Shown here one piece after another: positions 5,264 through 22,827 of a DNA stretch of 32,000 nt (the stretch's first letter is position 1; every line of letters starts with the position of its first letter). Made by a program: the position numbers and the translations under genes. The stretch is from Acinetobacter wanghuae (GTDB lineage Bacteria > Pseudomonadota > Gammaproteobacteria > Pseudomonadales > Moraxellaceae), in NCBI RefSeq assembly GCF_009557235.1, contig NZ_CP045650.1, positions 600,001 through 632,000 of the forward strand. The letters are read 5' to 3'. The notes beneath the pieces are model-generated. The model worked only from the letters and a program-made list of their open reading frames with translations, was not told where the DNA came from and made no database searches.

Positions 5264-5374
5264 GTTGGCTAAAATCGTGAAGCATCATGCGCTATTCTAG
5301 CCCAAGCCTAATGAAAAAAAGATAAAAATAATCAAATACCGTTTGTCGGGTAACTGCAATTTACGACCAACAAC

Positions 5375-5403
5375 TGTTGATCAATTTTTGAGTTCCATAT
5401 AAT
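5375..5403 (+). promoter_or_regulatory. Candidate sigma70 promoter for the secreted-subunit gene
   Basis: TGTTGATC region (-35-like TTGA core) and a perfect TATAAT at 5398-5403. Spacing is 15-17 nt depending on register. Would give a ~110-nt leader. Confidence 0.3.
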
Positions 5404-5521
5404 TTAAATGGGCGAGCAAATCACTCAAGGATTGGTTGTTTGTGACGTTCAAAAACAAAAAAAACATCACAGGCATAGAGTGATTCACAACCAAAAAAAT
5501 AATACTCTTGGGAGAGTACAC

Positions 5522-6676
5522 ATGAAAAAATTCACTAAATTAGCTTTGGCTGCTTCAGTTGCACTTAGCGCAAACGCAATGGCAATGCAAGCAATGGACG
5601 ATTCAACGCTAAGTGCGACGACTGGTCAAGACGGTATCAATATTGGTATTGGTATATCTAAGATCACGATTGATAAGTTATTTATACACGACAATGATGG
5701 TTTAAATCCAACACTAAAGGGCGGTAACCTTGTTGATGAAAATGCTGACGGAACCGCTAATGTAGGAAATCCTGCAATAACAGGTAGTTTAAAGGGTACA
5801 GGTGTAGCTGGTGCAATTGTTATTCAAGGTGTTACAGATGCTAGCCGTGCCGTAACCCATACATTAACGAAAGCAAGTTCTTCACTTCCAGATCAGACAT
5901 TCAATACTGCGGATCATGGTTTGTATATTGGTGCTAACTATTCTGATGGTGGTGCATATTTACTCGCTTCTAGAAATTTGGCAGATTTACAGATTGATAG
6001 CGATGCTGGTACTAAAGAGAACGGCGGAGCATTCATTAATGTTGCGGCTCAAGTATCAGGTCTTGAAATTCATATTGGTGAGATTGGTGTTGCAGCATCT
6101 GCAACTCAAGCTGCTGACTCTATTCGCCGTGGTGCTACGTTTACACAAGTTGCTGGTAAAGGGGAAACGACTGGTAACTATAATGCAATCTTAAGTGGTT
6201 TAAGTATTTTAACAGGTCAGATTGAAGCAAATATTCAATTAGGTGCTGCGCCACAGGGTGCTATGATCAAGCTTGATACTAAAATGCTTGGTGGTCTAGA
6301 AATCAAAAATTTAGGTATTCTTGATAGTTCAACAATTGCTCGTGATGACGCTGGGGTTGCTACTGGTAAACGTACAGCAGGTGAAATCTTTATTGAAAGT
6401 ATTAAAATTGCAGATGAAGGCAAGAAAGATCTAACTATTAGTTCTAATATTTCTGTATTTAACACTGATACTACCGTTGGAAAAGAAAAAGAAGCACATA
6501 TCCGTATCGTAAGTAATGATACAGGTGCAACTGACCAATATATTAAAGGTATTCGTTTAGGAAGCCGTACAGCTGCTTCAATTGGTGATGTAGAAATTCA
6601 AGGTCTACAAACTTACTACTCTCCATCCGCTAGCGTTTACACTAAAGGCGCGGTTATTACTATTTCTGGTCACTAA
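5522..6676 (+). CDS. filA: Secreted beta-rich, Cys- and Trp-free putative fibre subunit (uncharacterised family; FilA-like)
   Basis: ATG 5522 is preceded by GGGAGAG. Sec signal MKKFTKLALAASVALSANAMA. The 384-aa product is G/A/T/I/N-rich with no C or W and has recurring alternating-hydrophobic strand motifs (GLEIHIGEIGV, GLEIKNLGILD, GDVEIQGLQT). The upstream part of ORF 5408.. lacks an RBS and is His/Lys/Gln junk. The symbol is tentative and from memory of Acinetobacter annotation. Confidence 0.75.
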   Translation: MKKFTKLALAASVALSANAMAMQAMDDSTLSATTGQDGINIGIGISKITIDKLFIHDNDGLNPTLKGGNLVDENADGTANVGNPAITGSLKGTGVAGAIVIQGVTDASRAVTHTLTKASSSLPDQTFNTADHGLYIGANYSDGGAYLLASRNLADLQIDSDAGTKENGGAFINVAAQVSGLEIHIGEIGVAASATQAADSIRRGATFTQVAGKGETTGNYNAILSGLSILTGQIEANIQLGAAPQGAMIKLDTKMLGGLEIKNLGILDSSTIARDDAGVATGKRTAGEIFIESIKIADEGKKDLTISSNISVFNTDTTVGKEKEAHIRIVSNDTGATDQYIKGIRLGSRTAASIGDVEIQGLQTYYSPSASVYTKGAVITISGH

Positions 6677-6690
6677 TCTCATCTAAAAAA

Positions 6691-6714
6691 AGCGCGTTTC
6701 GACGCGCTTTTTTT
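6691..6714 (+). terminator. Strong rho-independent terminator after the subunit gene
   Basis: AGCGCGT-TTCG-ACGCGCT (7-bp GC stem, UUCG tetraloop) followed by a 7-T run, 15 nt after the stop. Confidence 0.85.
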
Positions 6715-6740
6715 ATGTCAAAATTTCTATTCATCTTATA

Positions 6741-6770
6741 TTGTAAAAAACACTATTTTTTTTGTATAAA
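6741..6770 (+). promoter_or_regulatory. Candidate extended -10 promoter for the downstream five-gene operon
   Basis: TTGTAA (6741-6746), an 18-nt spacer including TG, then TATAAA (6765-6770). Confidence 0.3.
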
Positions 6771-6861
6771 AAGAAGTATCTTCATGTGACAAGGATGTAG
6801 AGTTTTCACTCTAGAATAATAACGAAAAGACGCACAGCGTCAGACTTGAAAAGTAAAAATT

Positions 6862-7701
6862 ATGTTAGAGATTGCACTCGGCTCGGCATTGATCTATTAC
6901 GCTGCCAAAGAAGCCTTCGATATAAAAGAACAACCTGCAGAGGCGGTTCGCTATACGGAAACTCTAGATTCCCGTCAGGACTCTTTTGTGCGTATGCATC
7001 GCGAGCCTGTGCTGATTCAACCTGCACTTGCAGATCAATTTCGTGGCATTGTCCGTCAAGCCTATGACTACAGTTGCGGTTCTGCTGCACTCACCACTTT
7101 ACTGAATGGCTATACCAATTTAGACGTTAAACTCACCGAAGAAAACGTGATGAATGGTTTGCTCAAATTCGGTGAAACTGAAAAAATTATTGAACGCCGT
7201 AGCTTTTCATTACTTGACATGAAACGCTTTGTGACTGCCATTGGCTTAGAAAGTGGTGGCTATAAAGGCGAATTTAGTGACTTGGTTTCGCAAGGTCAAC
7301 CCGCAATCGTGCCGATCTCATATGCAGGCTTCAAACATTTTGTGGTCTATAAAGGCTATAAAGATGGACGTGTGTACGTGGCAGATCCGGCTCTAGGCAA
7401 TATCAGTTTTGATGAAATTCGCTTTCAAGAAATTTGGGAAAACAACACCCTCTTCTTAATTAATGTTGCGCCAGAGAAGCGTAAGAATTTATTGGCATTA
7501 AACGAACGTGATATGCGTCATGTTGATGATGCAACCGTAAACCGTTATGCCTTTGTTGATATGCAATATCCGCAGTTCTATGTTGAAAAAATTGCAGATA
7601 AAGCATCGACCATTCGTTTAGATAAAAATACCAATAAAGATTCAGAGTCTTATGGGCAATCAAATTATAACTTCTTACGTCTTTATTATAAGAATAAGTA
7701 A
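6862..7701 (+). CDS. filB: Stand-alone C39-family (papain-like) cysteine peptidase (FilB-like)
   Basis: 279 aa. RQAYDYSCGSAALTTLL gives the Gln66/Cys72 oxyanion-nucleophile spacing, and GFKHFVVYKGYKDGRVYVADPALG gives His159 and Asp175. This is the C39 bacteriocin-processing fold without any ABC-transporter domain. The N-terminus is weakly hydrophobic (MLEIALGSALIYYAA). Symbol tentative. Confidence 0.75.
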   Translation: MLEIALGSALIYYAAKEAFDIKEQPAEAVRYTETLDSRQDSFVRMHREPVLIQPALADQFRGIVRQAYDYSCGSAALTTLLNGYTNLDVKLTEENVMNGLLKFGETEKIIERRSFSLLDMKRFVTAIGLESGGYKGEFSDLVSQGQPAIVPISYAGFKHFVVYKGYKDGRVYVADPALGNISFDEIRFQEIWENNTLFLINVAPEKRKNLLALNERDMRHVDDATVNRYAFVDMQYPQFYVEKIADKASTIRLDKNTNKDSESYGQSNYNFLRLYYKNK

Positions 7702-7750
7702 GTTTTATTGGGTTTAAAGAAAGAAAAATAAAAATTTGGTGGGATGAAAC

Positions 7751-8914
7751 ATGAAGAGTAAATGGATGAACAAAACACTACTTGCGATGAGTATTCAGCT
7801 GGTCATGGGCGCGGCATATGCTGCGAATGAACCGAGTTTAGGTGAATATGAGGCAATGGAAGAACAGACCGTTGTATCATCAACCGAACCTACAAGTGAT
7901 ACAAGTTTAGGCGAGTACGAAACAGTACAAGAAGCTGAAACTGTTGCAGAAACCCAAGCTTCTACGGCTGCTGATACGACTTCTCAGGCATCAACTGCAT
8001 TACAACAACAAGAAGGCGATACCACCCAAGAAGCTAACTTACAGGAAGTGTTTACCTCAAGTGAGCGTCAATACTCGTTGATTAAAAAAGGTGATATTTC
8101 ATCTTATTATGACTTAGATTATACCTACTATCGTGACACACAACTTGATATGGAAATGGCGCAAGGTCAGCTTTATCAATTACGTGTCCAAGAAAATGCT
8201 ACGCATACCCTAACCAATACATTTACGGCTCAATATGGGCTAAGAGACAACTTAACCCTGACAGCATCTGTGCCATTGGTTGCGAAATCGGATCTTCTCA
8301 AAGATGCCACAGCGGCAGGCTTAGGAGATATTAGCCTAGGTGCACGTTGGGAGCCATTCCCACTGAAGGCTGGACGTCTACCATTAATTCTGTTTGGTAA
8401 TGTCTCGACCAAAACAGGCGATAGTCCTTATGAAATCAATCCTAATCGGGATTTATCAACAGGTAAGGGCTATTACTCAGTCGGAGCAGGCGCAAGTACA
8501 CGTAAATATATCGACCCTGTGGTTTTATTCGCCTCTGTTTCAGCCAACTATGGCTTTAAAGAATCGGGTTTAAATCAAATACGCGGTCCTCGCATCATTG
8601 AAGAATTTGAACCAGGAATTAGTGGTGGTTTTGCCTTCGGTTTTGCTTACTCGTTTAACTATGATGTCTCGATGACGATGTCATATCAACAGAGTTTCAA
8701 TACGGGTTCAGAGTTTAGATATAACACAGGTGAAAGCTATTCACCGGCAGATCAAACCAGTGCTACTTTTGCAATTGCACTTGGCGTACGTGTGTCACCA
8801 GAGACCATTGTCAATGGCACACTGGGAATTGGCTTAACTGAAGATGCACCAGATGTGTCATTAGGTCTGTCATTCCCATTGGATATTTTAGGCTTCGGTA
8901 AGAAAATCCGTTAA
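7751..8914 (+). CDS. filC: Outer-membrane beta-barrel protein, MetA/phenol-degradation-like 'transporter' family, with acidic N-terminal extension (FilC-like)
   Basis: Signal peptide MKSKWMNKTLLAMSIQLVMGAAYA. A ~100-aa E/T/S/Q-rich extension carries a duplicated SLGEYE motif. This is followed by alternating-hydrophobic barrel strands and LGDISLGARWEPF, typical of that family. The family call is by eye. Symbol tentative. Confidence 0.6.
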   Translation: MKSKWMNKTLLAMSIQLVMGAAYAANEPSLGEYEAMEEQTVVSSTEPTSDTSLGEYETVQEAETVAETQASTAADTTSQASTALQQQEGDTTQEANLQEVFTSSERQYSLIKKGDISSYYDLDYTYYRDTQLDMEMAQGQLYQLRVQENATHTLTNTFTAQYGLRDNLTLTASVPLVAKSDLLKDATAAGLGDISLGARWEPFPLKAGRLPLILFGNVSTKTGDSPYEINPNRDLSTGKGYYSVGAGASTRKYIDPVVLFASVSANYGFKESGLNQIRGPRIIEEFEPGISGGFAFGFAYSFNYDVSMTMSYQQSFNTGSEFRYNTGESYSPADQTSATFAIALGVRVSPETIVNGTLGIGLTEDAPDVSLGLSFPLDILGFGKKIR

Positions 8915-8926
8915 GAGGGCAGTCGT

Positions 8927-10591
8927 ATGAAAAGAAGTCGACTTCGCCCCTTAGTCTCTGCGATTTTATTAACGGGCTTTTCCAGTGCTGCATTTGCGCA
9001 ATTGGGGACAAATTTATCAGTTGATTTAAGATCATTGGCTCTGGGTAATGCGGTAACCGCAGATCCACCCGGTGTTAATGCGGTACATTTTAACCCGGCT
9101 GGCTTGACTAAAATTCAAGGCTTGCAGACTGAACAGCAAATTATTGTCGCGGATTTTGATATTCAGCGCGAATTTACTGTGCCTGCTGGATATAACGTTT
9201 TTGGTTATTCAGATGACCCTTTGGTCTGTAATGATGGCCCAGAAGTCAATTCTGACTTATGTACAGATTTTAAAGGACCCGTATCTGGCGATGTAGAATA
9301 TGTCAGTCTATATGTTCCAATTTTGAAAAAAATGGTGGATTTAGGTAAAGGTGTACCGATGGTCGCACCGACGATGGGTATTGCCTACAATCCGCCAGGC
9401 TCTAAAGCAACCTATGCGACAGCCGTATATGCACCATTGATGGCAGGTTTCGGTGCTGAAGATGGTAATCCGGGTAACTTTATGGGACAGCAAGTTGCGC
9501 TAGAACGGATTACCTATTTATCACCAAGTGTGGGTTATCAAGTGAATGATCAACTCTCCATTGGTGGTGGGATCGGCATGTCCTATCAAGCCGTTGCCAT
9601 GAAAACAGATTTACGTTTTCCCAATGAATTGATTGGTATGTTGCGGATGATTGATGAAGTGGTGTGTACACCCTTTAAAGACAACTCCGATATTATTACT
9701 GACATTTTGCTCTTGGGGATGTGTAATGCCCAAGAGGGGATGAACCCATTTGGCAAGTTTGGTCAAATGCAATTGGCTTTGGAACAATCCTTAAGTCCAA
9801 GTTTCAACTTAGGTATTTTGTGGGAGCCGACTGAAGATTTTGGTTTTGGTTTGGTCTATCAAAGTGCAGCAAAAATGCGCTTAAAAGGCAAATATCACAT
9901 TGATAACGCGCGTGCACCACAAGAACTGATTAATGGTTTGATGTCATCACCGACAGGTCAAATCTTGGCAGCCATCTTAGGTTTTCCTAATTATATTCCT
10001 TCGAGTGAATCTGGTTTGGTATCCATGGATTTTGAATATCCAGCCCATATTCAAGCCGGTATTAAATATAAAATCATGCCAGATTTACAGATTAACTTTG
10101 ATGTCGGTTGGTCTGATTTTAAAGCATGGGATAAATTTAAATTTGAGTTTGATCGTCAAATTTCGGCACTTAAAATTGCAAAATTACTTTCAGCTGATGT
10201 CACAGATTCCTCACTCGCTTTACCTTTAGGTTTCCAATCTGCATGGAACTTTGGTATCGGTATGGAATACTCTGTGACGGATCGTTTAAAACTACGCGCA
10301 GGCTATGAACCACGTGGTAGTGCGATCCCAGATAACAAACGAAATACTATGGTGCCGATTAACAACGCTCAACTGTTTGGTCTAGGTGTTGGTTATCAAT
10401 TTGATGCAGATACGGAACTAGATTTATCCATTGGGCATTTGCGCAGTAAAGATAATATTCCAGCTAACACGAGTAGTTTGGCAAACCAAACCGGCGTCAA
10501 CAATTTACTGCTTAACCCTTACGCGGGTTTAAATGTAAAAACCGATACGAAAGTGACCATTCTAGGTCTGAATTATAGAACTCGATGGTAG
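8927..10591 (+). CDS. filD: FadL/TodX/OmpP1-family outer-membrane transport protein (FilD-like)
   Basis: Signal peptide ...GFSSAAFA. LALGNAVTADPPGVNAVHFNPAGL is the FadL-family N-terminal hatch motif. The C-terminus is the aromatic-ended strand LNYRTRW. Starts 12 nt after the previous gene. Symbol tentative. Confidence 0.75.
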   Translation: MKRSRLRPLVSAILLTGFSSAAFAQLGTNLSVDLRSLALGNAVTADPPGVNAVHFNPAGLTKIQGLQTEQQIIVADFDIQREFTVPAGYNVFGYSDDPLVCNDGPEVNSDLCTDFKGPVSGDVEYVSLYVPILKKMVDLGKGVPMVAPTMGIAYNPPGSKATYATAVYAPLMAGFGAEDGNPGNFMGQQVALERITYLSPSVGYQVNDQLSIGGGIGMSYQAVAMKTDLRFPNELIGMLRMIDEVVCTPFKDNSDIITDILLLGMCNAQEGMNPFGKFGQMQLALEQSLSPSFNLGILWEPTEDFGFGLVYQSAAKMRLKGKYHIDNARAPQELINGLMSSPTGQILAAILGFPNYIPSSESGLVSMDFEYPAHIQAGIKYKIMPDLQINFDVGWSDFKAWDKFKFEFDRQISALKIAKLLSADVTDSSLALPLGFQSAWNFGIGMEYSVTDRLKLRAGYEPRGSAIPDNKRNTMVPINNAQLFGLGVGYQFDADTELDLSIGHLRSKDNIPANTSSLANQTGVNNLLLNPYAGLNVKTDTKVTILGLNYRTRW

Positions 10592-10602
10592 ATTAAAAAA
10601 CG

Positions 10603-11775
10603 ATGATAAATTTAGGGATGAAATCAATATTATCGCTTGCTGTCTTACAAGGCACGGTTGTATACGCGGGTACATTTCATACCATTATTGGCCCAGATGG
10701 TCGACCACTGGTGGTTCAACGGAATGAATCACCCAAGCCAAAACATGAAAGAGTAAAAAATGTGACGCCTCAAGTGACCACGCCAACAGTGGTCACACCT
10801 TCATCAAATCAACCAATGACCCAACCGCCTGGCGTTTCAACATCACCTACACAGCAGCCTGCACGACAGCAACCGAAACCACTTGAAGACAAACCAATCG
10901 TGCCTTCTGTTGCTGTATTCCCACAGTCTCAACAAGAAGTCGTTGTAAAACTTATTCAGGTTGATAAAACGCCTGAGATTCCACCTAAAACTGAGGTCGT
11001 CGTAACACAGAAATCGGTTGAAGCAGAGGTCGCTGAGCCTGTATCAAAACCGGTTCAAAAGTTAACAACCCCATCAGGTTTTAATGATTTAGATGGTGAA
11101 CAATATGTCAGTAATGAATATTTAGAAGATAAAGAATTTAATCTTGAAGGCAAAAAACGTTTTTACACCATGCCTGAAGGAGTGATGGACAGTAAAGGTG
11201 GAAGTATTCGTTTACAAACCATTGAACGTGAAAAAGGCGTTGGAAAATCAGTGATACAAGCACTGTTTAGGAACAATCGTGTAGCGGACACTGGTCCGAT
11301 TGTTTTAGCATCGACTTATTATCGTGTATCTCAAAATGACAGTATTGAAGGCTTGGGTAAAGCATGTTTCTCGGACAAAAAAATCAAAAAATCTAAAGTC
11401 TTGGTGAAAGATAAAGATGTCAATTTGTGGCCACGTGCACCTTTAGCCAATGATTTTGATTATGAAGTGGTCAAACTAGAAGCACCTGTTCAAAATGTCA
11501 AAATTCATTCTTATGCAGCACGTGAAAACAATCCAACGTTCTATTGGCCTTTCGTGGTGTTTTTAGATGATCAAGCTTGTGTTCTAGAAGGTGCAGGCGG
11601 CTACAAAAACCAAGAATTAGAATCAAATGCCATTCAGCACATGCATATCGAAGGCATTGTGCAAGTACCCAAAAACAGCCATTACATATTAATGACGCCA
11701 TTAGCATCGGCCATTGATGTTGACCAACATGGACTGAGTAATCAAGGTCAACTCAAACTGAGCGTCATCCGTTAG
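10603..11775 (+). CDS. filE: Periplasmic protein with Pro/Gln/Thr-rich spacer and MalM-like C-terminal domain (FilE-like)
   Basis: Signal peptide MKSILSLAVLQGTVVYA (alternative start 10618). A ~120-aa P/Q/T/V-rich segment follows. C-terminal strings IHSYAARENNPTFYWPFVVFLDDQ, HYILMTP and GQLKLSV parallel E. coli MalM strings TSEVNKQTSVFAPNVLILDQN, LYVLVFT and GLLKLKV as I recall them. The domain call is low confidence. Symbol tentative. Confidence 0.55.
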   Translation: MINLGMKSILSLAVLQGTVVYAGTFHTIIGPDGRPLVVQRNESPKPKHERVKNVTPQVTTPTVVTPSSNQPMTQPPGVSTSPTQQPARQQPKPLEDKPIVPSVAVFPQSQQEVVVKLIQVDKTPEIPPKTEVVVTQKSVEAEVAEPVSKPVQKLTTPSGFNDLDGEQYVSNEYLEDKEFNLEGKKRFYTMPEGVMDSKGGSIRLQTIEREKGVGKSVIQALFRNNRVADTGPIVLASTYYRVSQNDSIEGLGKACFSDKKIKKSKVLVKDKDVNLWPRAPLANDFDYEVVKLEAPVQNVKIHSYAARENNPTFYWPFVVFLDDQACVLEGAGGYKNQELESNAIQHMHIEGIVQVPKNSHYILMTPLASAIDVDQHGLSNQGQLKLSVIR

Positions 11776-11780
11776 GGATA

Positions 11781-13811
11781 ATGAAAAAGAGAATAAAGAT
11801 GAAACGTAATAAAAAAATTTTAGCTTTTACACTGACTGTTTTAGCTTCGGCACTCACAGGATGTGGTGGTGAAAGTGCAAATGTCATTCCTGAGAAAAAT
11901 GAAACGACCTCTCTTAATGGATCATGTCTGAGTGGTAGCAATGGCTGCTTTGAGTTTGCACTTGATTATCCTATCGATGGTTTAAATTTCTACTGCGGTA
12001 GTGATACCGAAAATTCATACGTCACTTTGTATGACTTGAATGATGGAACTTCAAGTGGTGCGTGTAAAGCCGGTGATCAAATCACGTTCTTCTTACAAGG
12101 ATCAGACAAGCATAAAGTAGAATTGGGTAAATTCTCACTCGATAAAATCGGTAACATGTCTGTTTCACAGATGCCACGTTTGAGTATTTTAGATATCGCA
12201 GAAGGCATTCGCACCACCGGTGGCAATGCAAACCTAAAAACATCACGTGAAATTGCCATTCGCTTAATCCGTATCATTCAAAGTATTGGTTTAAATGTAA
12301 ACCCGCCACAATCGAGTGCAGCATTAAATTCAAATACAGATATACAACCGATTTTAATTAATGATTCGGTAAGAACTAAACTTGATCTGATGCTGAGTAA
12401 TATCACAGTCGATCAATTTAAAAACACCACAGATAGAGAGTTTGAAAGTCTATTGTCTAAGTGGTTAGATATTTCCAAAGTCTCCAATGCAGACGCTGCA
12501 ATCGTCCTTGATAAACTCCTGATTATTTCAAATGCCGCCGTCTATCAACCTGAATTCTCACTGTTCTCAACTTCAGATTTGATCAATAGTTATCTGAGTG
12601 GTTCCGAGGGATTGGTGGGTTGCGAGGCAGGCAAAGAATGTAAAGCAAGCAATACCACTGTTTCACATCTATTCGGTCACTTTATGCTCATGACAGACCG
12701 TCAGGGGCGTACTTTTGGTAGTGGTTTACAATGGCGTGGTATTCCACAAAGTGCAGCAGGTAGTACCACTGGTTTTGAAACACTCGGTGGATTAAATGCA
12801 CAGTTGATTCGTCAAGTAGCACCTGTTCAAATGACCGCAGCTCCACAAAAGTCTTGGATTGGTAAAGAAGATAAAGCAATTCCTGCAAATCCAGGGTTTG
12901 TCTTTAAAACGCATGATTCGACTGCTGAGACAATGACCATTTATCAAGGGCGTCTATATAACGATTACATGATTGCGGGTACAGAACGTTTTTATAAACT
13001 TTTGACGGGCAAGAAAACTGAGGATGTACTGACACCTGCGCAGAAAAATGAGCTTGGCTTATGGAAGCAATCGGGCGGTTCAAAAGACTATGCCGGAACG
13101 ATGGATCTTTATAAAATTTATCCAATCAGCTATTTAGACAATCGTGTCTTTAAAACCAAAGATAATGTGCAGTCTGGAAATACTTATATTTTTCCGCTAT
13201 ATGCCAATTTAAACTTTAAATTCACGGATACGAGTATTGCATCACAAACGGTACCTGTCGTGATTGATGAAAATGGTGATATTCGTACCAATTTCAAACC
13301 ATCTTCAGCATCAGTTGATGAATGTTCTGCAACTTACGATACCGCAACGATGCAAAGTAACTATGGCGGTACTGTGGAGCAGCAGTACCCAATTGGTACA
13401 GTGTCGCGTGCATTTGTAGCAAATGCGACCTCTCAGCCGACGGATAATACCATTTCAATTCGTTTAATTTTGGGCAATCAAAAATTTGGGAATTTGAATG
13501 GTGCATTAGTTGGCATGAACTCAACCATCAAAACATCAACAGCGAATACAGATGCGATTGTGATCGGTGGTGCGCTAGTTAAACTTCAAAACTTACTCAA
13601 AGCTGATGAAAATACGGCATTAAGCAGTACAAGTACGCCAATTACTGATTCCTCGGGTGCGACTGTCAAATGGGCAAATAGCTTCGCGAGCTTCAATAAA
13701 GTTTTTAGCGGGCAGAATCCAGATGATACGCAGTCTAAAGAATTGGCGAAACTCTCGGGTGGTGAACTCGATTTACAATTGGCATCGTGCTATCGCGTGA
13801 AGAAAAAATAA
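11781..13811 (+). CDS. filF: Large lipoprotein of unknown function (FilF-like)
   Basis: Lipobox LASALTGC after a basic N-terminus (alternative start 11799). 676 aa with several Cys pairs and no domain recognisable by eye. Starts 5 nt after the previous stop. Symbol tentative. Confidence 0.7.
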   Translation: MKKRIKMKRNKKILAFTLTVLASALTGCGGESANVIPEKNETTSLNGSCLSGSNGCFEFALDYPIDGLNFYCGSDTENSYVTLYDLNDGTSSGACKAGDQITFFLQGSDKHKVELGKFSLDKIGNMSVSQMPRLSILDIAEGIRTTGGNANLKTSREIAIRLIRIIQSIGLNVNPPQSSAALNSNTDIQPILINDSVRTKLDLMLSNITVDQFKNTTDREFESLLSKWLDISKVSNADAAIVLDKLLIISNAAVYQPEFSLFSTSDLINSYLSGSEGLVGCEAGKECKASNTTVSHLFGHFMLMTDRQGRTFGSGLQWRGIPQSAAGSTTGFETLGGLNAQLIRQVAPVQMTAAPQKSWIGKEDKAIPANPGFVFKTHDSTAETMTIYQGRLYNDYMIAGTERFYKLLTGKKTEDVLTPAQKNELGLWKQSGGSKDYAGTMDLYKIYPISYLDNRVFKTKDNVQSGNTYIFPLYANLNFKFTDTSIASQTVPVVIDENGDIRTNFKPSSASVDECSATYDTATMQSNYGGTVEQQYPIGTVSRAFVANATSQPTDNTISIRLILGNQKFGNLNGALVGMNSTIKTSTANTDAIVIGGALVKLQNLLKADENTALSSTSTPITDSSGATVKWANSFASFNKVFSGQNPDDTQSKELAKLSGGELDLQLASCYRVKKK

Positions 13812-13824
13812 AACCAATCAAAAA

Positions 13825-13849
13825 AGCCCATCAATTGATGGGCTTTTTT
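13825..13849. terminator. Bidirectional rho-independent terminator
   Basis: Perfect 20-nt palindrome AGCCCATCAATTGATGGGCT flanked by AAAAA and TTTTT. Lies between convergent genes. Confidence 0.85.
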
Positions 13850-13871
13850 ATAGCTTCATTGAAATGATGAG

Positions 13872-18286: not shown

Positions 18287-19669
18287 ATGATCGATTTTAA
18301 ACCTTCCATTAATTTTTGGCATGATTTTAAGAGCAACCAAACTGCCGGAATATGGTTATTTCTCGGTTCAAGGCGTTCTTTACAACTGGTTCGACCATCC
18401 ATCATGCAATTGGTGTTCTGGGGAATCTTAGGTGGCTGTGCCAATAGTTTATTTAGCTGGCTCAGTTCAGGTCGTATGGGAGATTTTAACTCTCAAGGTC
18501 TGATTAGTTACGCACTTTGGCCGTTTATTGCGCTTATTGTGGGGATTTTCTTATCCCAACGCATTAACAACCCACGTTTGATGTTGGTGCCTGCCTTACT
18601 GTGGTTGGTACTCGACACGCATATCATGCTGTTTCAATGTCTTATTCAGTTCTTGGGTGACATTGATTATCTGCCTTATTTTTTATATGACTATGTTCCT
18701 ACGCTTTTTGTCGGACTGTTTGTTTGGCAAAGTTTGGCTGTGGTTTGGGTGTTCTCACGTGAATTAAAGTGGCCATGGTGGGAACGTGCCTTAATTATGC
18801 TGGCAACCTTGGCAACCTTAGTTGTCTGGCAAATTTCCGTCAAAGATCAACCGATTTGGAAGGTTGAGCAACAATCGCCGAGTTTTGCTGAAGATGCCTT
18901 TTATGCTCAGCCGACCTTACTCAATAAAGCACTAGATAATATTCAGTTTGGTGAGTTTGCCCAGTCGCATTGGTACTTTATGGGCGTTGCGGGTGCGAGT
19001 TATCAAGATGTTTTCCAATTTGAAATTTCACGGATACGTGAACAGTTTGATACTCGCTTTGGAACTTTTGGTCGTTCAATTTCACTGATTAATCATCCTG
19101 CTACGCGGACAGAAGTTCCCATTGCTACCAAAACCAGTATGGAATTGGCACTGCGCCGTATTGGGCAGCAAATGAACCGTGAAGGCGATGTGTTATTTTT
19201 ATATATGACCTCACATGGTTTGCCGAATACCTTTGAAATGGAAAATGCGCCCTTAGATTTGGCGCAAGTCGATCCAAAATGGTTAAAGCAAACTTTAGAT
19301 GCTTCAGGTATTCGTTGGCGTGTGATTGTGGTGGGTTCATGTTATTCGGGAAGTTTTGTACCCGCATTACAAGATGACAATACTTTGATTATTACTGCAT
19401 CTGCAGCAGATCGTCAGTCTTTTGGTTGTTCGAACGAAGCAGACTATACTTACTTTGGGCGGGCTTTCTTTGATGAAGCGATGCGTGAGCAAAGTTCATT
19501 TAAGGGCGCATTTGAGCAAGCGCGTACAACCGTTGCGAAATGGGAAGCGGCTCAAGGTTTTGAACCTTCTGAGCCACAGTGGTCGATTGGTAAAAATATG
19601 GAATTGATGCTGCCACAATTAGAGCAGCGCTTATTTCCACCTGCGACCACCGCATTAAAAACACCTTAA
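18287..19669 (+). CDS. Membrane-anchored C13-family (legumain-like) cysteine peptidase
   Basis: The N-terminal ~190 aa carry several hydrophobic helices. The C-terminal domain has VLFLYMTSHGLP (His-Gly) and VIVVGSCYSGSF (catalytic Cys), as in peptidase C13. The start codon is uncertain. Confidence 0.65.
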   Translation: MIDFKPSINFWHDFKSNQTAGIWLFLGSRRSLQLVRPSIMQLVFWGILGGCANSLFSWLSSGRMGDFNSQGLISYALWPFIALIVGIFLSQRINNPRLMLVPALLWLVLDTHIMLFQCLIQFLGDIDYLPYFLYDYVPTLFVGLFVWQSLAVVWVFSRELKWPWWERALIMLATLATLVVWQISVKDQPIWKVEQQSPSFAEDAFYAQPTLLNKALDNIQFGEFAQSHWYFMGVAGASYQDVFQFEISRIREQFDTRFGTFGRSISLINHPATRTEVPIATKTSMELALRRIGQQMNREGDVLFLYMTSHGLPNTFEMENAPLDLAQVDPKWLKQTLDASGIRWRVIVVGSCYSGSFVPALQDDNTLIITASAADRQSFGCSNEADYTYFGRAFFDEAMREQSSFKGAFEQARTTVAKWEAAQGFEPSEPQWSIGKNMELMLPQLEQRLFPPATTALKTP

Positions 19670-20659: not shown

Positions 20660-21778
20660 ATGCAAAATAACGAAGAGTTTAATCCAGTACGACCCTCGTC
20701 ATTTGATTCACCTTTTCCACCCGAGATTCCTACAGATGACCGCTATGCGGTTAGACTGAATAAAATCCAACGCTTTGGCTTTCATGGCACAGGACTAGAA
20801 TATTTTGGTATTTGGATCGTTAATATTGTATTGATGATTGTGACCTTAGGGCTATATTCGCCGTGGGCAAAAGTGCGTCGTCTGCGCTATTTTTACGGTA
20901 ATACTGAACTTATACAACGGCGTTTTGACTTTACCGGTATACCGAGCAAAATTTTAAAAGGGCGTTTGATTGCACTCGCTATTTATTTTGCCATTTCAGT
21001 CATTTCAAACTTGTCTGTCAAATGGATGTTGATTGGATTACTCGTGGTTTATCTTGCCGTGCCTTGGTTGTTACGTGCCACCATCCGCTTTAATGCACGC
21101 AATAGTAAATTTAGTAATGCACGATTTTATTTTTCGGGTAGCAATAAACAAGCCTATTGGATCTTTTTTAAATCCATGGTGTTGTTTCTGTTGACAGCGG
21201 GTCTTATTTTTCCCGTGTTACTGTTATTTTATAAGCGCTATTGTTTTGATCATTTGTATGCAGGTCAGCTTAAATTTCGCTTTACCGCAACATGGCTCGA
21301 TTTCATGAAAGCCGTCTATGTTCCTGTGTTGGCATTGATGGCATTTTCAGTGATGTTATTGATGAGCGTTGGCATGCCAAAATTGGGCAATGTGATGTAT
21401 GACCCTGTTGCCTTAAGCGGCTTAGTTGGCTTGATCGCGTTGGCTTATGTCGTGTTGTTATTTGTATTTTGGCCATGGATTCAAGCGCGTATTTTTATGG
21501 CGACATGGAATAACGTGGTTTTAAGTCGTAGTAAGTTTCAAACCGATTGTAGTCAAGTGACTTTTGTTTGGATTGTAATCAGTAATTGGGTTTTAAGAAT
21601 CATCAGTTTAGGCTTGCTTACACCATGGGCTGCAATTCGTATTTATCGTTACAAGGTTGAATCACTCAGTTTATATTTAAATAATGATCCGAACACGATG
21701 ATGAATCAATTGCAAAAAGATCATAGTGCGATTGCTGAAGAAATTAGCGATATTTTTGATCTTGATATTTCACTTTAA
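20660..21778 (+). CDS. YjgN-family (DUF898) polytopic membrane protein
   Basis: FHGTGLEYFGIWIVNIVLMIVTLGLYSPWAKVRRLRYFYGNT and the repeated motif LLTPWAAIRIYRY are characteristic of DUF898 duplicated modules. Confidence 0.7.
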   Translation: MQNNEEFNPVRPSSFDSPFPPEIPTDDRYAVRLNKIQRFGFHGTGLEYFGIWIVNIVLMIVTLGLYSPWAKVRRLRYFYGNTELIQRRFDFTGIPSKILKGRLIALAIYFAISVISNLSVKWMLIGLLVVYLAVPWLLRATIRFNARNSKFSNARFYFSGSNKQAYWIFFKSMVLFLLTAGLIFPVLLLFYKRYCFDHLYAGQLKFRFTATWLDFMKAVYVPVLALMAFSVMLLMSVGMPKLGNVMYDPVALSGLVGLIALAYVVLLFVFWPWIQARIFMATWNNVVLSRSKFQTDCSQVTFVWIVISNWVLRIISLGLLTPWAAIRIYRYKVESLSLYLNNDPNTMMNQLQKDHSAIAEEISDIFDLDISL

Positions 21779-21792
21779 TAGGAAGCCCAGTC

Positions 21793-22827
21793 ATGTCTTT
21801 GCAGCCAATTCATGTGATTTTCTATGATGGGATTGTGTCACAACCACGCCAAGCAAAACTCTATGCGTGGAATAAGCATTCTGTGCAAATCGAATATCAA
21901 GACCATGGTACGGTCGAAAAGATCTATACCTACAAAGACATGACTTTGATTGGTGCCCTAGGTCAAATTCATCCAGTGATTGAACTCAAAGATGATGCAC
22001 GCATTGAGTTTTCAGAACCATTACCTGCTTGGTTTGATTTGGATCATAAAAATAAAAACAATTCGATTTGGAAATTAGAGCGTTCACCTTCACTTATTTT
22101 ATTTAGTGTGATTTTCGTGGCAGCTTTTGCTTTTGCGACTGTTAAATGGGGAATTCCAACAGCGGCCTATCAAGTGGCAAAATATTTACCTGCCGACACG
22201 TTAAAAAGTATCGGTGACCAAGCTGAAGAATATTTAATAAACGCCACTGCGCCAAGTCAATTACCTCAAGCGCGTCAGGATAAAATTACCGCGGATTATC
22301 AAAAGTTGTTTGGTCAGCAAAAACCTGCGAAAATTTTATTTAGACAGGGGGATAGTATTGGTGCGAATGCGCTCGCAATTCCCAATAATACGATTGTGCT
22401 GACTGATGAACTGGTGAAGCTAGCAGCAGATGATCGCGAAATCATTGGTGTTCTTGCTCATGAGCAGGGGCATTTAGCAGAGCGACATAGTTTGCAACAA
22501 GCCATCAGCAGTTTAGGTTTTAGTGCGATTGTAATTTTGATTACGGGTGACGCATCGGACTTAATTACGACAGTTCCTGTTGCTATGATCGGTTCGAGTT
22601 ATTCGCGTGATTTTGAAGCTGAAGCAGATCAGTACGCTTTAAAAACCATGTATCAGCATCAGATTTCGACTCAATATTTTGCGCAGTTCTTAGAGCGTTT
22701 GGCAAAGCATAATGGCGAACAAGACGAGAACGAAAAATCAATTCTAGAATTTTTAAGTAGCCATCCTGCAACCAAGGATCGTATTCAAGCGGTGAAAGAT
22801 TTTGAAATGCAGCATCAAGGACATTAA
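21793..22827 (+). CDS. M48-family zinc metallopeptidase with N-terminal membrane segment
   Basis: HEQGH (HExxH) sits in GVLAHEQGHLAERH, with a downstream EAEADQYAL glutamate motif and one TM helix (SLILFSVIFVAAFAFA). Starts 14 nt after the DUF898 gene. Confidence 0.75.
   Translation: MSLQPIHVIFYDGIVSQPRQAKLYAWNKHSVQIEYQDHGTVEKIYTYKDMTLIGALGQIHPVIELKDDARIEFSEPLPAWFDLDHKNKNNSIWKLERSPSLILFSVIFVAAFAFATVKWGIPTAAYQVAKYLPADTLKSIGDQAEEYLINATAPSQLPQARQDKITADYQKLFGQQKPAKILFRQGDSIGANALAIPNNTIVLTDELVKLAADDREIIGVLAHEQGHLAERHSLQQAISSLGFSAIVILITGDASDLITTVPVAMIGSSYSRDFEAEADQYALKTMYQHQISTQYFAQFLERLAKHNGEQDENEKSILEFLSSHPATKDRIQAVKDFEMQHQGH

Follow-up and report, generated by a model that had tools for sequence, protein, structure and literature searches.

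The fil locus of Acinetobacter wanghuae: a pilus operon that probably uses a Fap-type outer-membrane secretion module for a different subunit

The six genes located between positions 5522 and 13811 of the 32,000-nucleotide stretch of Acinetobacter wanghuae DNA analysed here (the window) are, judging by their predicted products, almost certainly the orthologue of the filABCDEF pilus operon of Acinetobacter, since all six proteins score above the cut-offs of the curated NCBIfam models pilus_FilA to pilus_FilF (bits versus cut-off: FilA 278/220, FilB 519/475, FilC 710/630, FilD 1076/970, FilE 430/100 and FilF 756/390). We propose as the probable reading that Fil is an ATP-independent outer-membrane secretion module of the Fap type, put to use for another kind of pilus subunit that is probably not an amyloid. 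The locus as such is not new, as NCBI-curated models exist for all six proteins. It is also known as A1S_0690-0695 in A. baumannii ATCC 17978, where it is regarded as a single operon (PMC5376624), and has been referred to as 'putative type III pili'. The orthologue in the window differs in nothing essential from the known locus and has the same gene order and flanks. The name filA-filF, which an earlier note on this DNA had given, is thus the right one according to the NCBIfam models.

All six genes lie on the forward strand and have the sizes and spacers first read from the sequence: filA (5522-6676; 384 aa from MKKF, in an open frame that extends back to 5408), filB (6862-7701), filC (7751-8914), filD (8927-10591), filE (10603-11775) and filF (11781-13811), separated according to the ORF coordinates by 185, 49, 12, 11 and 5 nt, respectively. 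The proposed check of gene-neighbourhood co-conservation came out in favour of a functional unit. The filA-filF order of the window is found in 72 of 80 Acinetobacter loci, the remaining eight being too short to hold all six genes, and in 70 of the 72 complete loci both flanks, pabB and the Nudix gene, are visible. Divergent relatives of FilA are followed by the same gene set, including those in an Agitococcus-like genome of the Moraxellaceae, where the order is kept and FilA is present in 2-4 copies; the window holds one filA copy as compared to the 2-4 tandem copies of some Moraxellaceae loci. Identity to the window proteins falls from FilD (75-88% among Acinetobacter loci, the most conserved of the six) through FilB and FilC to FilA, FilE and FilF, with FilF the least conserved (32-50%). 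These rates would fit the expected topology, in that the presumed machinery is conserved whereas the presumably surface-exposed FilA and FilF are divergent.

The case for Fap-type export rests on FilB and FilC, for which profile and structure searches of the six proteins returned Fap relatives in addition to the Fil families. FilB was expected to be a stand-alone C39 cysteine peptidase and indeed matches Pfam Peptidase_C39 (1.9e-15, 57 bits with a cut-off of 22) as well as NCBIfam C39_FapD (2e-29). Its Cys72, His159 and Asp175 are the same in all of 63 orthologues and five distant homologues, which identifies FilB, at the level of sequence, as a FapD-like C39 peptidase with conserved catalytic residues. 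The N-terminal segment MLxxxLGSA is invariant too, but no cleavable signal peptide of the canonical kind is present in FilB and its compartment is therefore uncertain. FilC carries a signal peptide and matches NCBIfam FapF (3e-20) and the FapF structure 5O65 in the PDB, both as a single sequence (5e-12) and as a profile (E 1.8e-18, covering chain residues 33-332 of 334), and is by these alignments a FapF-family outer-membrane barrel. As had been noted, the barrel is preceded by an acidic N-terminal extension (18 Asp+Glu versus 1 Lys+Arg in residues 25-110), which is of low complexity here and hypervariable between species. The trimeric N-terminal coiled coil of FapF is not evident in this extension; within the FilC family a coiled-coil-like stretch was noticed only in a 688-aa variant (L083). 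The description of FilC as a barrel of the MetA/phenol-degradation type holds in part, as the FilC of the window has no Pfam match whereas divergent homologues carry a precomputed match to PF13557.

The parallel with the Pseudomonas Fap system (fapABCDEF; FapF structures PDB 5O65, 5O67 and 5O68) drawn in the earlier note thus reflects real homology. Common to both systems are a Sec-exported fibre subunit, a stand-alone C39 peptidase (FapD/FilB), a dedicated barrel bearing an N-terminal periplasmic extension (FapF/FilC) and the lack of an ATPase, a chaperone-usher pair and a secretin. Orthology of FilC to FapF and of FilB to FapD was rejected, however, with scores below the NCBIfam equivalog cut-offs (72 versus 700 and 102 versus 330 bits, respectively), and since these scores are far under the cut-offs the functions of FilB and FilC could have diverged. 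The same note had inferred a distinct export route of undescribed mechanism. The second half of this claim stands, inasmuch as no description of how Fil filaments are assembled was found in the searchable literature. The first half is overstated, because the likely translocon and protease belong to the Fap family and Fil is thus a variant on a known secretion module.

As to the fibre itself, experiments in other Acinetobacter species have shown thin, curved surface filaments to be built from FilA subunits, a role transferred to A. wanghuae by orthology; between the FilA of the window and A. wanghuae FilA the identity is 100%. For Acinetobacter sp. Tol 5, Edman sequencing identified the subunit of such filaments as FilA; cells grown on triacylglycerol carry the curved fibres in abundance, and on SDS-PAGE FilA migrates as a monomer (PMC3498257). 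A proteomic study of the same strain names FilA the Fil pilus subunit (PMC11784438). Likewise, mass spectrometry detected FilA in purified thin, curved filaments of A. genomosp. 16 (PMC10980823, PMC11539960). Sequence analysis bears out that the protein has a Sec-type signal peptide and neither Cys nor Trp; a canonical double-glycine leader is absent. Its N-terminus matches DUF6160 (Pfam), and the AlphaFold2 model, of moderate quality (pLDDT 65), is all-beta, with no relative in the PDB by sequence or by fold. Conservation in this otherwise hypervariable protein family is highest at the termini, which are kept across 385 clusters at 50% identity and in all tandem paralogues. They comprise an N-terminal motif, A[LM][EQ]x[LM]xDxxLxxxT[GA]QDG, that leads into an alternating hydrophobic strand, and a C-terminal motif, IGDxExxGL...IxISGH. 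Mature residues 22-44 have a pLDDT below 50 in the monomer model and yet form the most conserved part of the protein.

The layout of expression signals suggests that subunit and machinery are produced in different amounts. A putative filA promoter can be read directly off the sequence at 5377..5403 on the forward strand (-35-like TTGATC at 5377-5382, a 15-nt spacer and -10 TATAAT at 5398-5403), and its -35 region is conserved among 59 distinct Acinetobacter filA upstream sequences. It is not listed by a consensus scan because the scan demands a spacer of 16-18 nt. Upstream of it, the block AATACCGTTTGTC (5336..5348, forward strand), at least 95% conserved in the same 59 sequences, is a possible regulator site for filA. 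The strong terminator proposed to close filA is borne out by a forward-strand hairpin at 6684-6715 (-17.5 kcal/mol, z = -5.25 versus shuffles), an intrinsic terminator or attenuator whose equivalent, with a T-run and compensatory changes in the stem, follows filA in 76 of 79 Acinetobacter loci; the filA terminator of A. baumannii even serves as a 'strong terminator' (bioRxiv 10.64898/2026.02.23.707608). At the other end of the locus, filF and the convergent Nudix gene have a bidirectional terminator in common (13819..13850; a 14-bp stem, then a T-run). Chaperone-usher pili such as Csu and type 1 likewise have an attenuating terminator behind a subunit gene that is highly expressed.

FilE and FilF, like FilA, match only their own Fil model among the NCBIfam models at E ≤ 0.01. 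FilE consists of a signal peptide, a short conserved N-terminal motif (FxTIxGPDGR), the anticipated spacer of about 120 residues (residues 41-165, with 21 Pro, 13 Gln, 13 Thr and 20 Val among 125), which is variable, and the Pfam domain FilE_C (PF22881, 2.5e-67) with an invariant cysteine pair, Cys255 and Cys326. The MalM-like domain that had been suggested for FilE found no support at the sequence level, as even at E ≤ 10 FilE_C was the only Pfam match, and no relative of FilE was found in the PDB. FilF is, as predicted, a 676-aa cysteine-containing lipoprotein (lipobox LTGC, 9 Cys). For its AlphaFold2 model (pLDDT 82.5, pTM 0.84) the best Foldseek match in the PDB has an E of 0.28, and the FilF profile matches no PDB sequence. 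FilE and FilF have conserved cysteines whereas FilA has none. FilF has also been tried as a vaccine antigen (PMC4751259).

Taken together, the following scheme can be put forward for the secretion of FilA, in which we infer every step, and with it the roles of FilB to FilF, from homology and conservation. filA would be strongly transcribed from its own promoter, and at the conserved terminator only a fraction of transcripts would read through into filBCDEF; such partial read-through would keep the subunit in large excess over the machinery, which is also the case for other pilus operons. FilA would be exported to the periplasm by Sec, where it could stay unfolded since it has no cysteines. The gated FapF-family barrel FilC, in which a variable periplasmic extension is combined with a conserved plug/linker, would then let FilA across the outer membrane without the aid of an ATPase, a chaperone or an usher. 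FilB, with its invariant hydrophobic N-terminus, may carry out a required proteolytic step. Outside the cell, FilA subunits would polymerise via their termini, with beta-strand complementation from one subunit to the next as the probable mode. FilD, FilE and FilF may be lineage-specific accessories for anchoring, nucleation or substrate handling, FilE as a periplasmic protein with its Pro-rich spacer and FilF as a putatively disulfide-bonded lipoprotein, reported from outer membranes and vesicles.

But what would FilD contribute to such a system? That it is a FadL/TodX-type barrel, as first surmised, is clear from its full-length match to Pfam Toluene_X (2e-64, 218 bits with a cut-off of 29.7), and its best PDB match is the P. 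aeruginosa outer-membrane protein 3DWO, with 'HFNPAGL' of FilD aligned to the NPA hatch motif of 3DWO. FilD thus belongs to the same family as the FadL, TodX and TbuX channels, but differs from them in that its gene is part of a pilus operon and is conserved together with it. FilD keeps the small-molecule hatch motif of FadL and may not act on protein at all. One might see the locus as a device for the capture of lipids, in which the FilA fibre would mainly keep cells at an oil or air interface, while FilD would take up long-chain fatty acids or hydrocarbons in the manner of FadL and have no part in the assembly apparatus. Besides the family membership and the retained motif, the position of FilD as the most conserved of the six proteins speaks for this view, as does the related locus (L081) of the Agitococcus-like genome, Agitococcus being a lipolytic genus. 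Moreover, air-liquid pellicles and biofilms show elevated FilF and FilC (PMC3203104, PMC8792954). Then again, FilD exceeds FadL by about 100 residues and has Cys-containing inserts that may mark a different role, and both transport by FilD and lipid binding by FilA are hypothetical. Lipid capture would also still require an export route for FilA and is therefore compatible with, rather than exclusive of, Fap-type export. As an explanation of the locus in its own right we consider it rather improbable.

We regard as quite unlikely an attachment complex akin to the type IX secretion system (T9SS), in which FilB, in the manner of the sortase PorU, would cleave a conserved terminal signal of FilA or FilF and hand the product to a surface complex of a PorV-like FilD and FilF, leaving FilC as a pore only. 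The co-conservation of a cysteine peptidase, a FadL-type barrel and a surface lipoprotein in one locus would suit such a complex, and so would the invariant Gly-Gly in FilF (C28-G29-G30) and FilA (G257-G258). The match of FilD to the PorV/PorQ family (2.8e-10) is weak, however, its 40 bits falling short of the PorV_fam cut-off of 90, and is accounted for by general FadL homology, so that FilD was rejected as a PorV/PorQ protein. In addition, C39 peptidases are not known to be related to the C25 sortase PorU, T9SS components are absent, and the monomeric state of FilA on SDS-PAGE (PMC3498257) argues against covalent linkage.

Equally doubtful in our opinion is a true functional amyloid, that is, a divergent Fap system in which FilA has replaced FapB/FapC as the cross-beta subunit. 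The homology of FilB and FilC with FapD and FapF would be in keeping with it, FilA is beta-rich with alternating hydrophobic strands, and the tandem FilA paralogues of some loci recall FapB/FapC. However, no internal repeats were detected in FilA (best hhalign probability between segments 7.6%), the protein is not Gln/Asn-rich (34 of 384 residues), and its sole NCBIfam match at E ≤ 0.01 is pilus_FilA. Furthermore, the Fil product is a discrete thin, curved pilus whose subunit is monomeric on SDS-PAGE, whereas Fap produces a matrix amyloid. As already supposed, the other components do not resemble Fap: relatives of FapA, FapB, FapC and FapE are missing from Fil, nothing in Fap corresponds to FilA, FilE or FilF, and the FadL-type barrel, FilE and the FilF lipoprotein are extra to Fil.

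That the six genes are mere neighbours of unrelated function, as the strong terminator and the 185 nt between filA and the other five might suggest, is very improbable given that order and spacing stay the same throughout the 72 complete loci and also in divergent Moraxellaceae, that the filB-filF spacers are just 5-49 nt, and that A1S_0690-0695 is regarded as one operon. Two known pilus types were discarded as well. Pfam and NCBIfam searches of the six proteins confirmed the reported lack of a chaperone, usher, secretin, ATPase, CsgG or TpsB. A chaperone-usher pilus was rejected as none of the six proteins matches a PapD-like chaperone or an usher; the conserved terminal strands of FilA do suggest strand complementation between subunits as in these pili, but FilA has no pilin fold match. 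A type IV pilus was dismissed since FilA starts with a Sec signal peptide and lacks an N_methyl match, and no ATPase or secretin is present among the six proteins. The window does contain type IV minor pilins, in a separate cluster at 27302-31985.

Fap-type export of a non-Fap subunit hence remains our preferred reading. Whether Fil amounts to a separate class of Gram-negative pilus is a bolder proposition, which we put forward tentatively. Such a class would unite Fap-type export, an unfolded, Cys-free FilA of new fold, self-assembly by terminal strands without ATP, chaperone or usher, an anchor or nucleator of novel fold in FilF, and FilD-coupled lipid uptake at hydrophobic interfaces. At any rate, the kinship of FilB and FilC with the protease and the channel of Fap provides a testable idea of how the thin Fil fibre may be exported.

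The fil locus consists of six plus-strand open reading frames, filA (5522-6676), filB (6862-7701), filC (7751-8914), filD (8927-10591), filE (10603-11775) and filF (11781-13811), separated by spacers of 185, 49, 12, 11 and 5 nt, a layout that had been read correctly in the earlier note, and is flanked by two minus-strand genes, pabB and a Nudix gene. All six proteins exceed the curated NCBIfam cut-offs (pilus_FilA to pilus_FilF) and therefore the locus name filA-filF, as given in the earlier note, is correct. Pfam identifies DUF6160 at the N-terminus of FilA, Peptidase_C39 in FilB, Toluene_X in FilD and FilE_C in FilE, has no match for FilC and FilF, and did not reproduce two labels assigned previously, MalM for FilE and Phenol_MetA_deg for FilC of the window. 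What had been said of the composition of FilA, FilC, FilE and FilF agrees with the residue counts throughout, and the strong terminator claimed to follow filA is present as a 3' hairpin at 6684-6715 (-17.5 kcal/mol, z = -5.25). All in all, the fil finding is real and its first description largely accurate. FilA of the window is 100% identical to an A. wanghuae protein, and none of the six Fil proteins matched the PADLOC defence models.

The fibre itself has been seen before. In Acinetobacter sp. Tol 5, Edman sequencing identified FilA as the component of long, curved 'Fil fimbriae', and Fil fibres are abundant on triacylglycerol-grown cells of this strain (PMC3498257). In A. genomosp. 16, the thin, curved filaments obtained together with type IV pili on purification were found by mass spectrometry to contain FilA, and were termed 'a pilus of unknown functions' by the authors (PMC10980823, PMC11539960); the purified FilA filaments of this species constitute 'Layer 1' in PMC11539960. 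The A. baumannii operon A1S_0690-0695 has been named 'putative type III pili' (PMC4256060, PMC5376624), pellicles and biofilms show raised FilF and FilC (PMC3203104, PMC8792954), immunisation with FilF as a vaccine antigen protected 50% of mice against a lethal dose (PMC4751259), and the role of the fibre is described as still awaiting experimental examination (PMC5757984). While name and fibre are already known, the assembly route is absent from the searchable literature: the full texts searched, those available without subscription, yielded neither a description of Fil fibre assembly nor a link between Fil and Fap.

We find that FilB and FilC are related to FapD, the C39 peptidase, and FapF, the outer-membrane barrel, of the Pseudomonas functional amyloid system. 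In NCBIfam, FilB matches the equivalog model of FapD at 2e-29, and the FapF model is matched by FilC at 3e-20; FilC moreover matches the FapF crystal structures as a single sequence (5e-12) and, as a profile of six sequences, the FapF construct over chain residues 33-332 of 334 (1.8e-18). The parallel with Fap drawn in the earlier note is thus borne out and is one of homology rather than of analogy. At the same time, both proteins score far under the Fap equivalog cut-offs of NCBIfam and, different from Fap, the locus contains no counterparts of FapA, FapB, FapC or FapE. Therefore, Fil is not a Fap system but employs a Fap-type module, which it has in common with Fap in the form of FilB and FilC.

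Cys72, His159 and Asp175 of FilB are kept in 63/63 orthologues as well as in five distant homologues; the protein is without a canonical signal peptide, and its N-terminus is hydrophobic and invariant. In FilC, residues 25-110 comprise 18 acidic residues versus a single basic one. Immediately N-terminal of the barrel lies a strongly conserved segment, ALxQQ...NLxEVFTSxExxYSLxKxG, preceded by a low-complexity extension that is hypervariable and about 60 to 380 residues long, and as judged from their sequences these two elements take the position of the plug and periplasmic region of FapF. In a 688-aa FilC variant from a related locus in another genome (L083:3803-5869), the N-terminal extension is longer by about 300 residues, with a Pro/Lys-rich spacer and a heptad-like stretch that has the look of a coiled coil. 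This variant shows the plasticity of the periplasmic part of the FapF-like barrel.

The fibre subunit FilA contains neither Cys nor Trp and belongs to a family of 385 clusters at 50% identity. Its middle is hypervariable and conservation is sharp in two regions, an N-terminal motif that adjoins the signal peptide and is followed by an alternating hydrophobic strand, and the C-terminal motif IGDxExxGL...IxISGH. The AF2 monomer (pLDDT 65) has an all-beta fold with long hairpins, and residues 22-44, the most conserved part of the mature protein, are unstructured in the model. Neither the single sequence nor the family profile matched PDB sequences, and a Foldseek search of the PDB with this model of pLDDT 65 retrieved no related fold (best E 0.79). 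We infer that the conserved termini form the subunit-subunit interface by strand complementation. No internal repeats were detected by hhalign between segments of FilA, which removes a Fap/curli-style repeat architecture. A canonical double-glycine leader was rejected too, as the conserved TGQDG motif departs from the GG-leader pattern.

FilD is a genuine FadL-family barrel (Toluene_X) in which the NPA hatch motif is kept. In FilE, a spacer whose length varies links a short, conserved N-terminal motif to the FilE_C domain. The Cys pair of this domain is invariant and fits a periplasmic location; residues 41-165 of FilE abound in Pro, Gln, Thr and Val, and the protein has no match among PDB sequences. 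FilF carries the lipobox LTGC and nine Cys. Its predicted model is confident (pLDDT 82.5, pTM 0.84) and has no neighbour in the PDB by Foldseek (best E 0.28), nor did the FilF profile give anything significant against PDB sequences. An invariant Gly-Gly directly follows the lipidated Cys of FilF (C28-G29-G30-E31-S32, 11862-11876), and another lies in a conserved strand of FilA (G257-G258-L-E, 6290-6301). Both are possible candidates for C39 peptidase cleavage and are offered as leads only.

A search with a narrow FilA alignment returned 80 loci, all from Acinetobacter, and the co-conservation that had been proposed as a check is evident: 72 of the 80 contain filA-filF in the order of the window, the other eight being too short, and 70 of the 72 complete loci retain both pabB and the Nudix gene. 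Identity to the window among the Acinetobacter loci is 75-88% for FilD, the most conserved of the six, 65-85% for FilB, 60-81% for FilC, 48-61% for FilA, 35-62% for FilE and 32-50% for FilF, a pattern that fits a conserved machinery alongside surface parts that diversify. Insertions between filA and filB, of about 1.1 kb (L006:10028-11137) and about 2.4 kb (L026:11035-13443), occur in loci of A. idrijaensis and of a strain of A. lwoffii; they probably represent mobile elements, by which filA is uncoupled from filB-F. In many draft Acinetobacter contigs (L003-L030 and others), a break lies about 9 kb 5' of filA, the filA match starting near locus position 9000, which suggests a repeated element (rRNA operon or IS) at a fixed distance upstream of filA, outside the window.

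Outside Acinetobacter, the system was found in five loci of metagenomic or MAG origin, of which one is linked to an Agitococcus-like member of the Moraxellaceae. In all five, the C39 peptidase, the FapF-like barrel, Toluene_X and FilE are retained together with a protein of about 650 aa; FilE_C is on record in four, the counterpart in the fifth (L085) being without Pfam match. In the genome that carries locus L081, a PAPS reductase clusters at at least 90% with Agitococcus and Moraxellaceae MAG proteins, and therefore the system reaches beyond Acinetobacter, within the Moraxellaceae. The divergent Moraxellaceae loci (L081-L086; for instance L086:9004-12813 and L085:10001-12938) contain two to four tandem FilA paralogues, all with the N- and C-terminal motifs. 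The last copy, adjoining filB, is set apart by the presence of Cys and by a C-terminus that reads G[IML] or GKN rather than GH. These differences suggest a minor or nucleator subunit, which the window lacks.

The filA terminator is kept in 76 of 79 loci, with compensatory changes in the stem, and that of A. baumannii serves elsewhere as a 'strong terminator' (bioRxiv 10.64898/2026.02.23.707608); a bidirectional terminator (13819-13850) stands at the end of the locus. The filA 5' region contains blocks at least 95% conserved among 59 distinct Acinetobacter upstream sequences (5336-5348, 5366-5384, 5424-5431 and 5499-5516). One conserved block, AATACCGTTTGTC, lies far 5' of the putative promoter and another, CTCAAGGA, in what is likely the 5' UTR. 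The blocks are candidate regulator or RNA elements.

Elsewhere in the window, a type IV minor-pilin cluster (27302-31985, minus strand), apart from and unrelated to fil, comprises four small ORFs with an N-terminal methylation motif, one of them with a ComP_DUS domain, and downstream of these a 900-aa ORF (27302-30004, minus strand) without Pfam match, which is perhaps PilY1/ComC-like. Downstream of fil, amid housekeeping genes, lie a gene for a 460-aa Peptidase_C13 (legumain-like) protein and an adjacent DUF898 and Peptidase_M48 gene pair (18287-19669 and 20660-22827, respectively).

But how would the fibre reach the cell surface? From the identity, homologies and co-conservation of the parts, together with the filament reported in the literature, we infer a route in which filA is transcribed strongly, with an attenuator after it, and Cys-free FilA would be exported by Sec. 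The subunit would then traverse FilC, the FapF-type barrel, in conjunction with a proteolytic step that depends on FilB, and polymerise extracellularly via its conserved termini, FilD, FilE and FilF being putative lineage-specific accessory parts. As a rival or a complement to this export route, the system may serve lipid capture with FilD as a true lipid channel, a reading supported by such a possible role of FilD together with the abundant fibres of Tol 5 on triacylglycerol.

Acinetobacter includes a WHO priority pathogen, and FilA fibres are plentiful on some strains. With the homology to FapF and FapD, what were 'putative pilus assembly proteins' become the subject of specific, testable hypotheses on the route of assembly. 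The homology also suggests that the Fap secretion module is not restricted to amyloid and serves outer-membrane export more generally. FilA and FilF are without detectable PDB neighbours in sequence or fold, and the structure of filament and machinery would probably establish folds and a principle of assembly that are new. Finally, a FadL-type partner alongside fibres that abound on triacylglycerol-grown cells hints that pili and the acquisition of lipids are linked.
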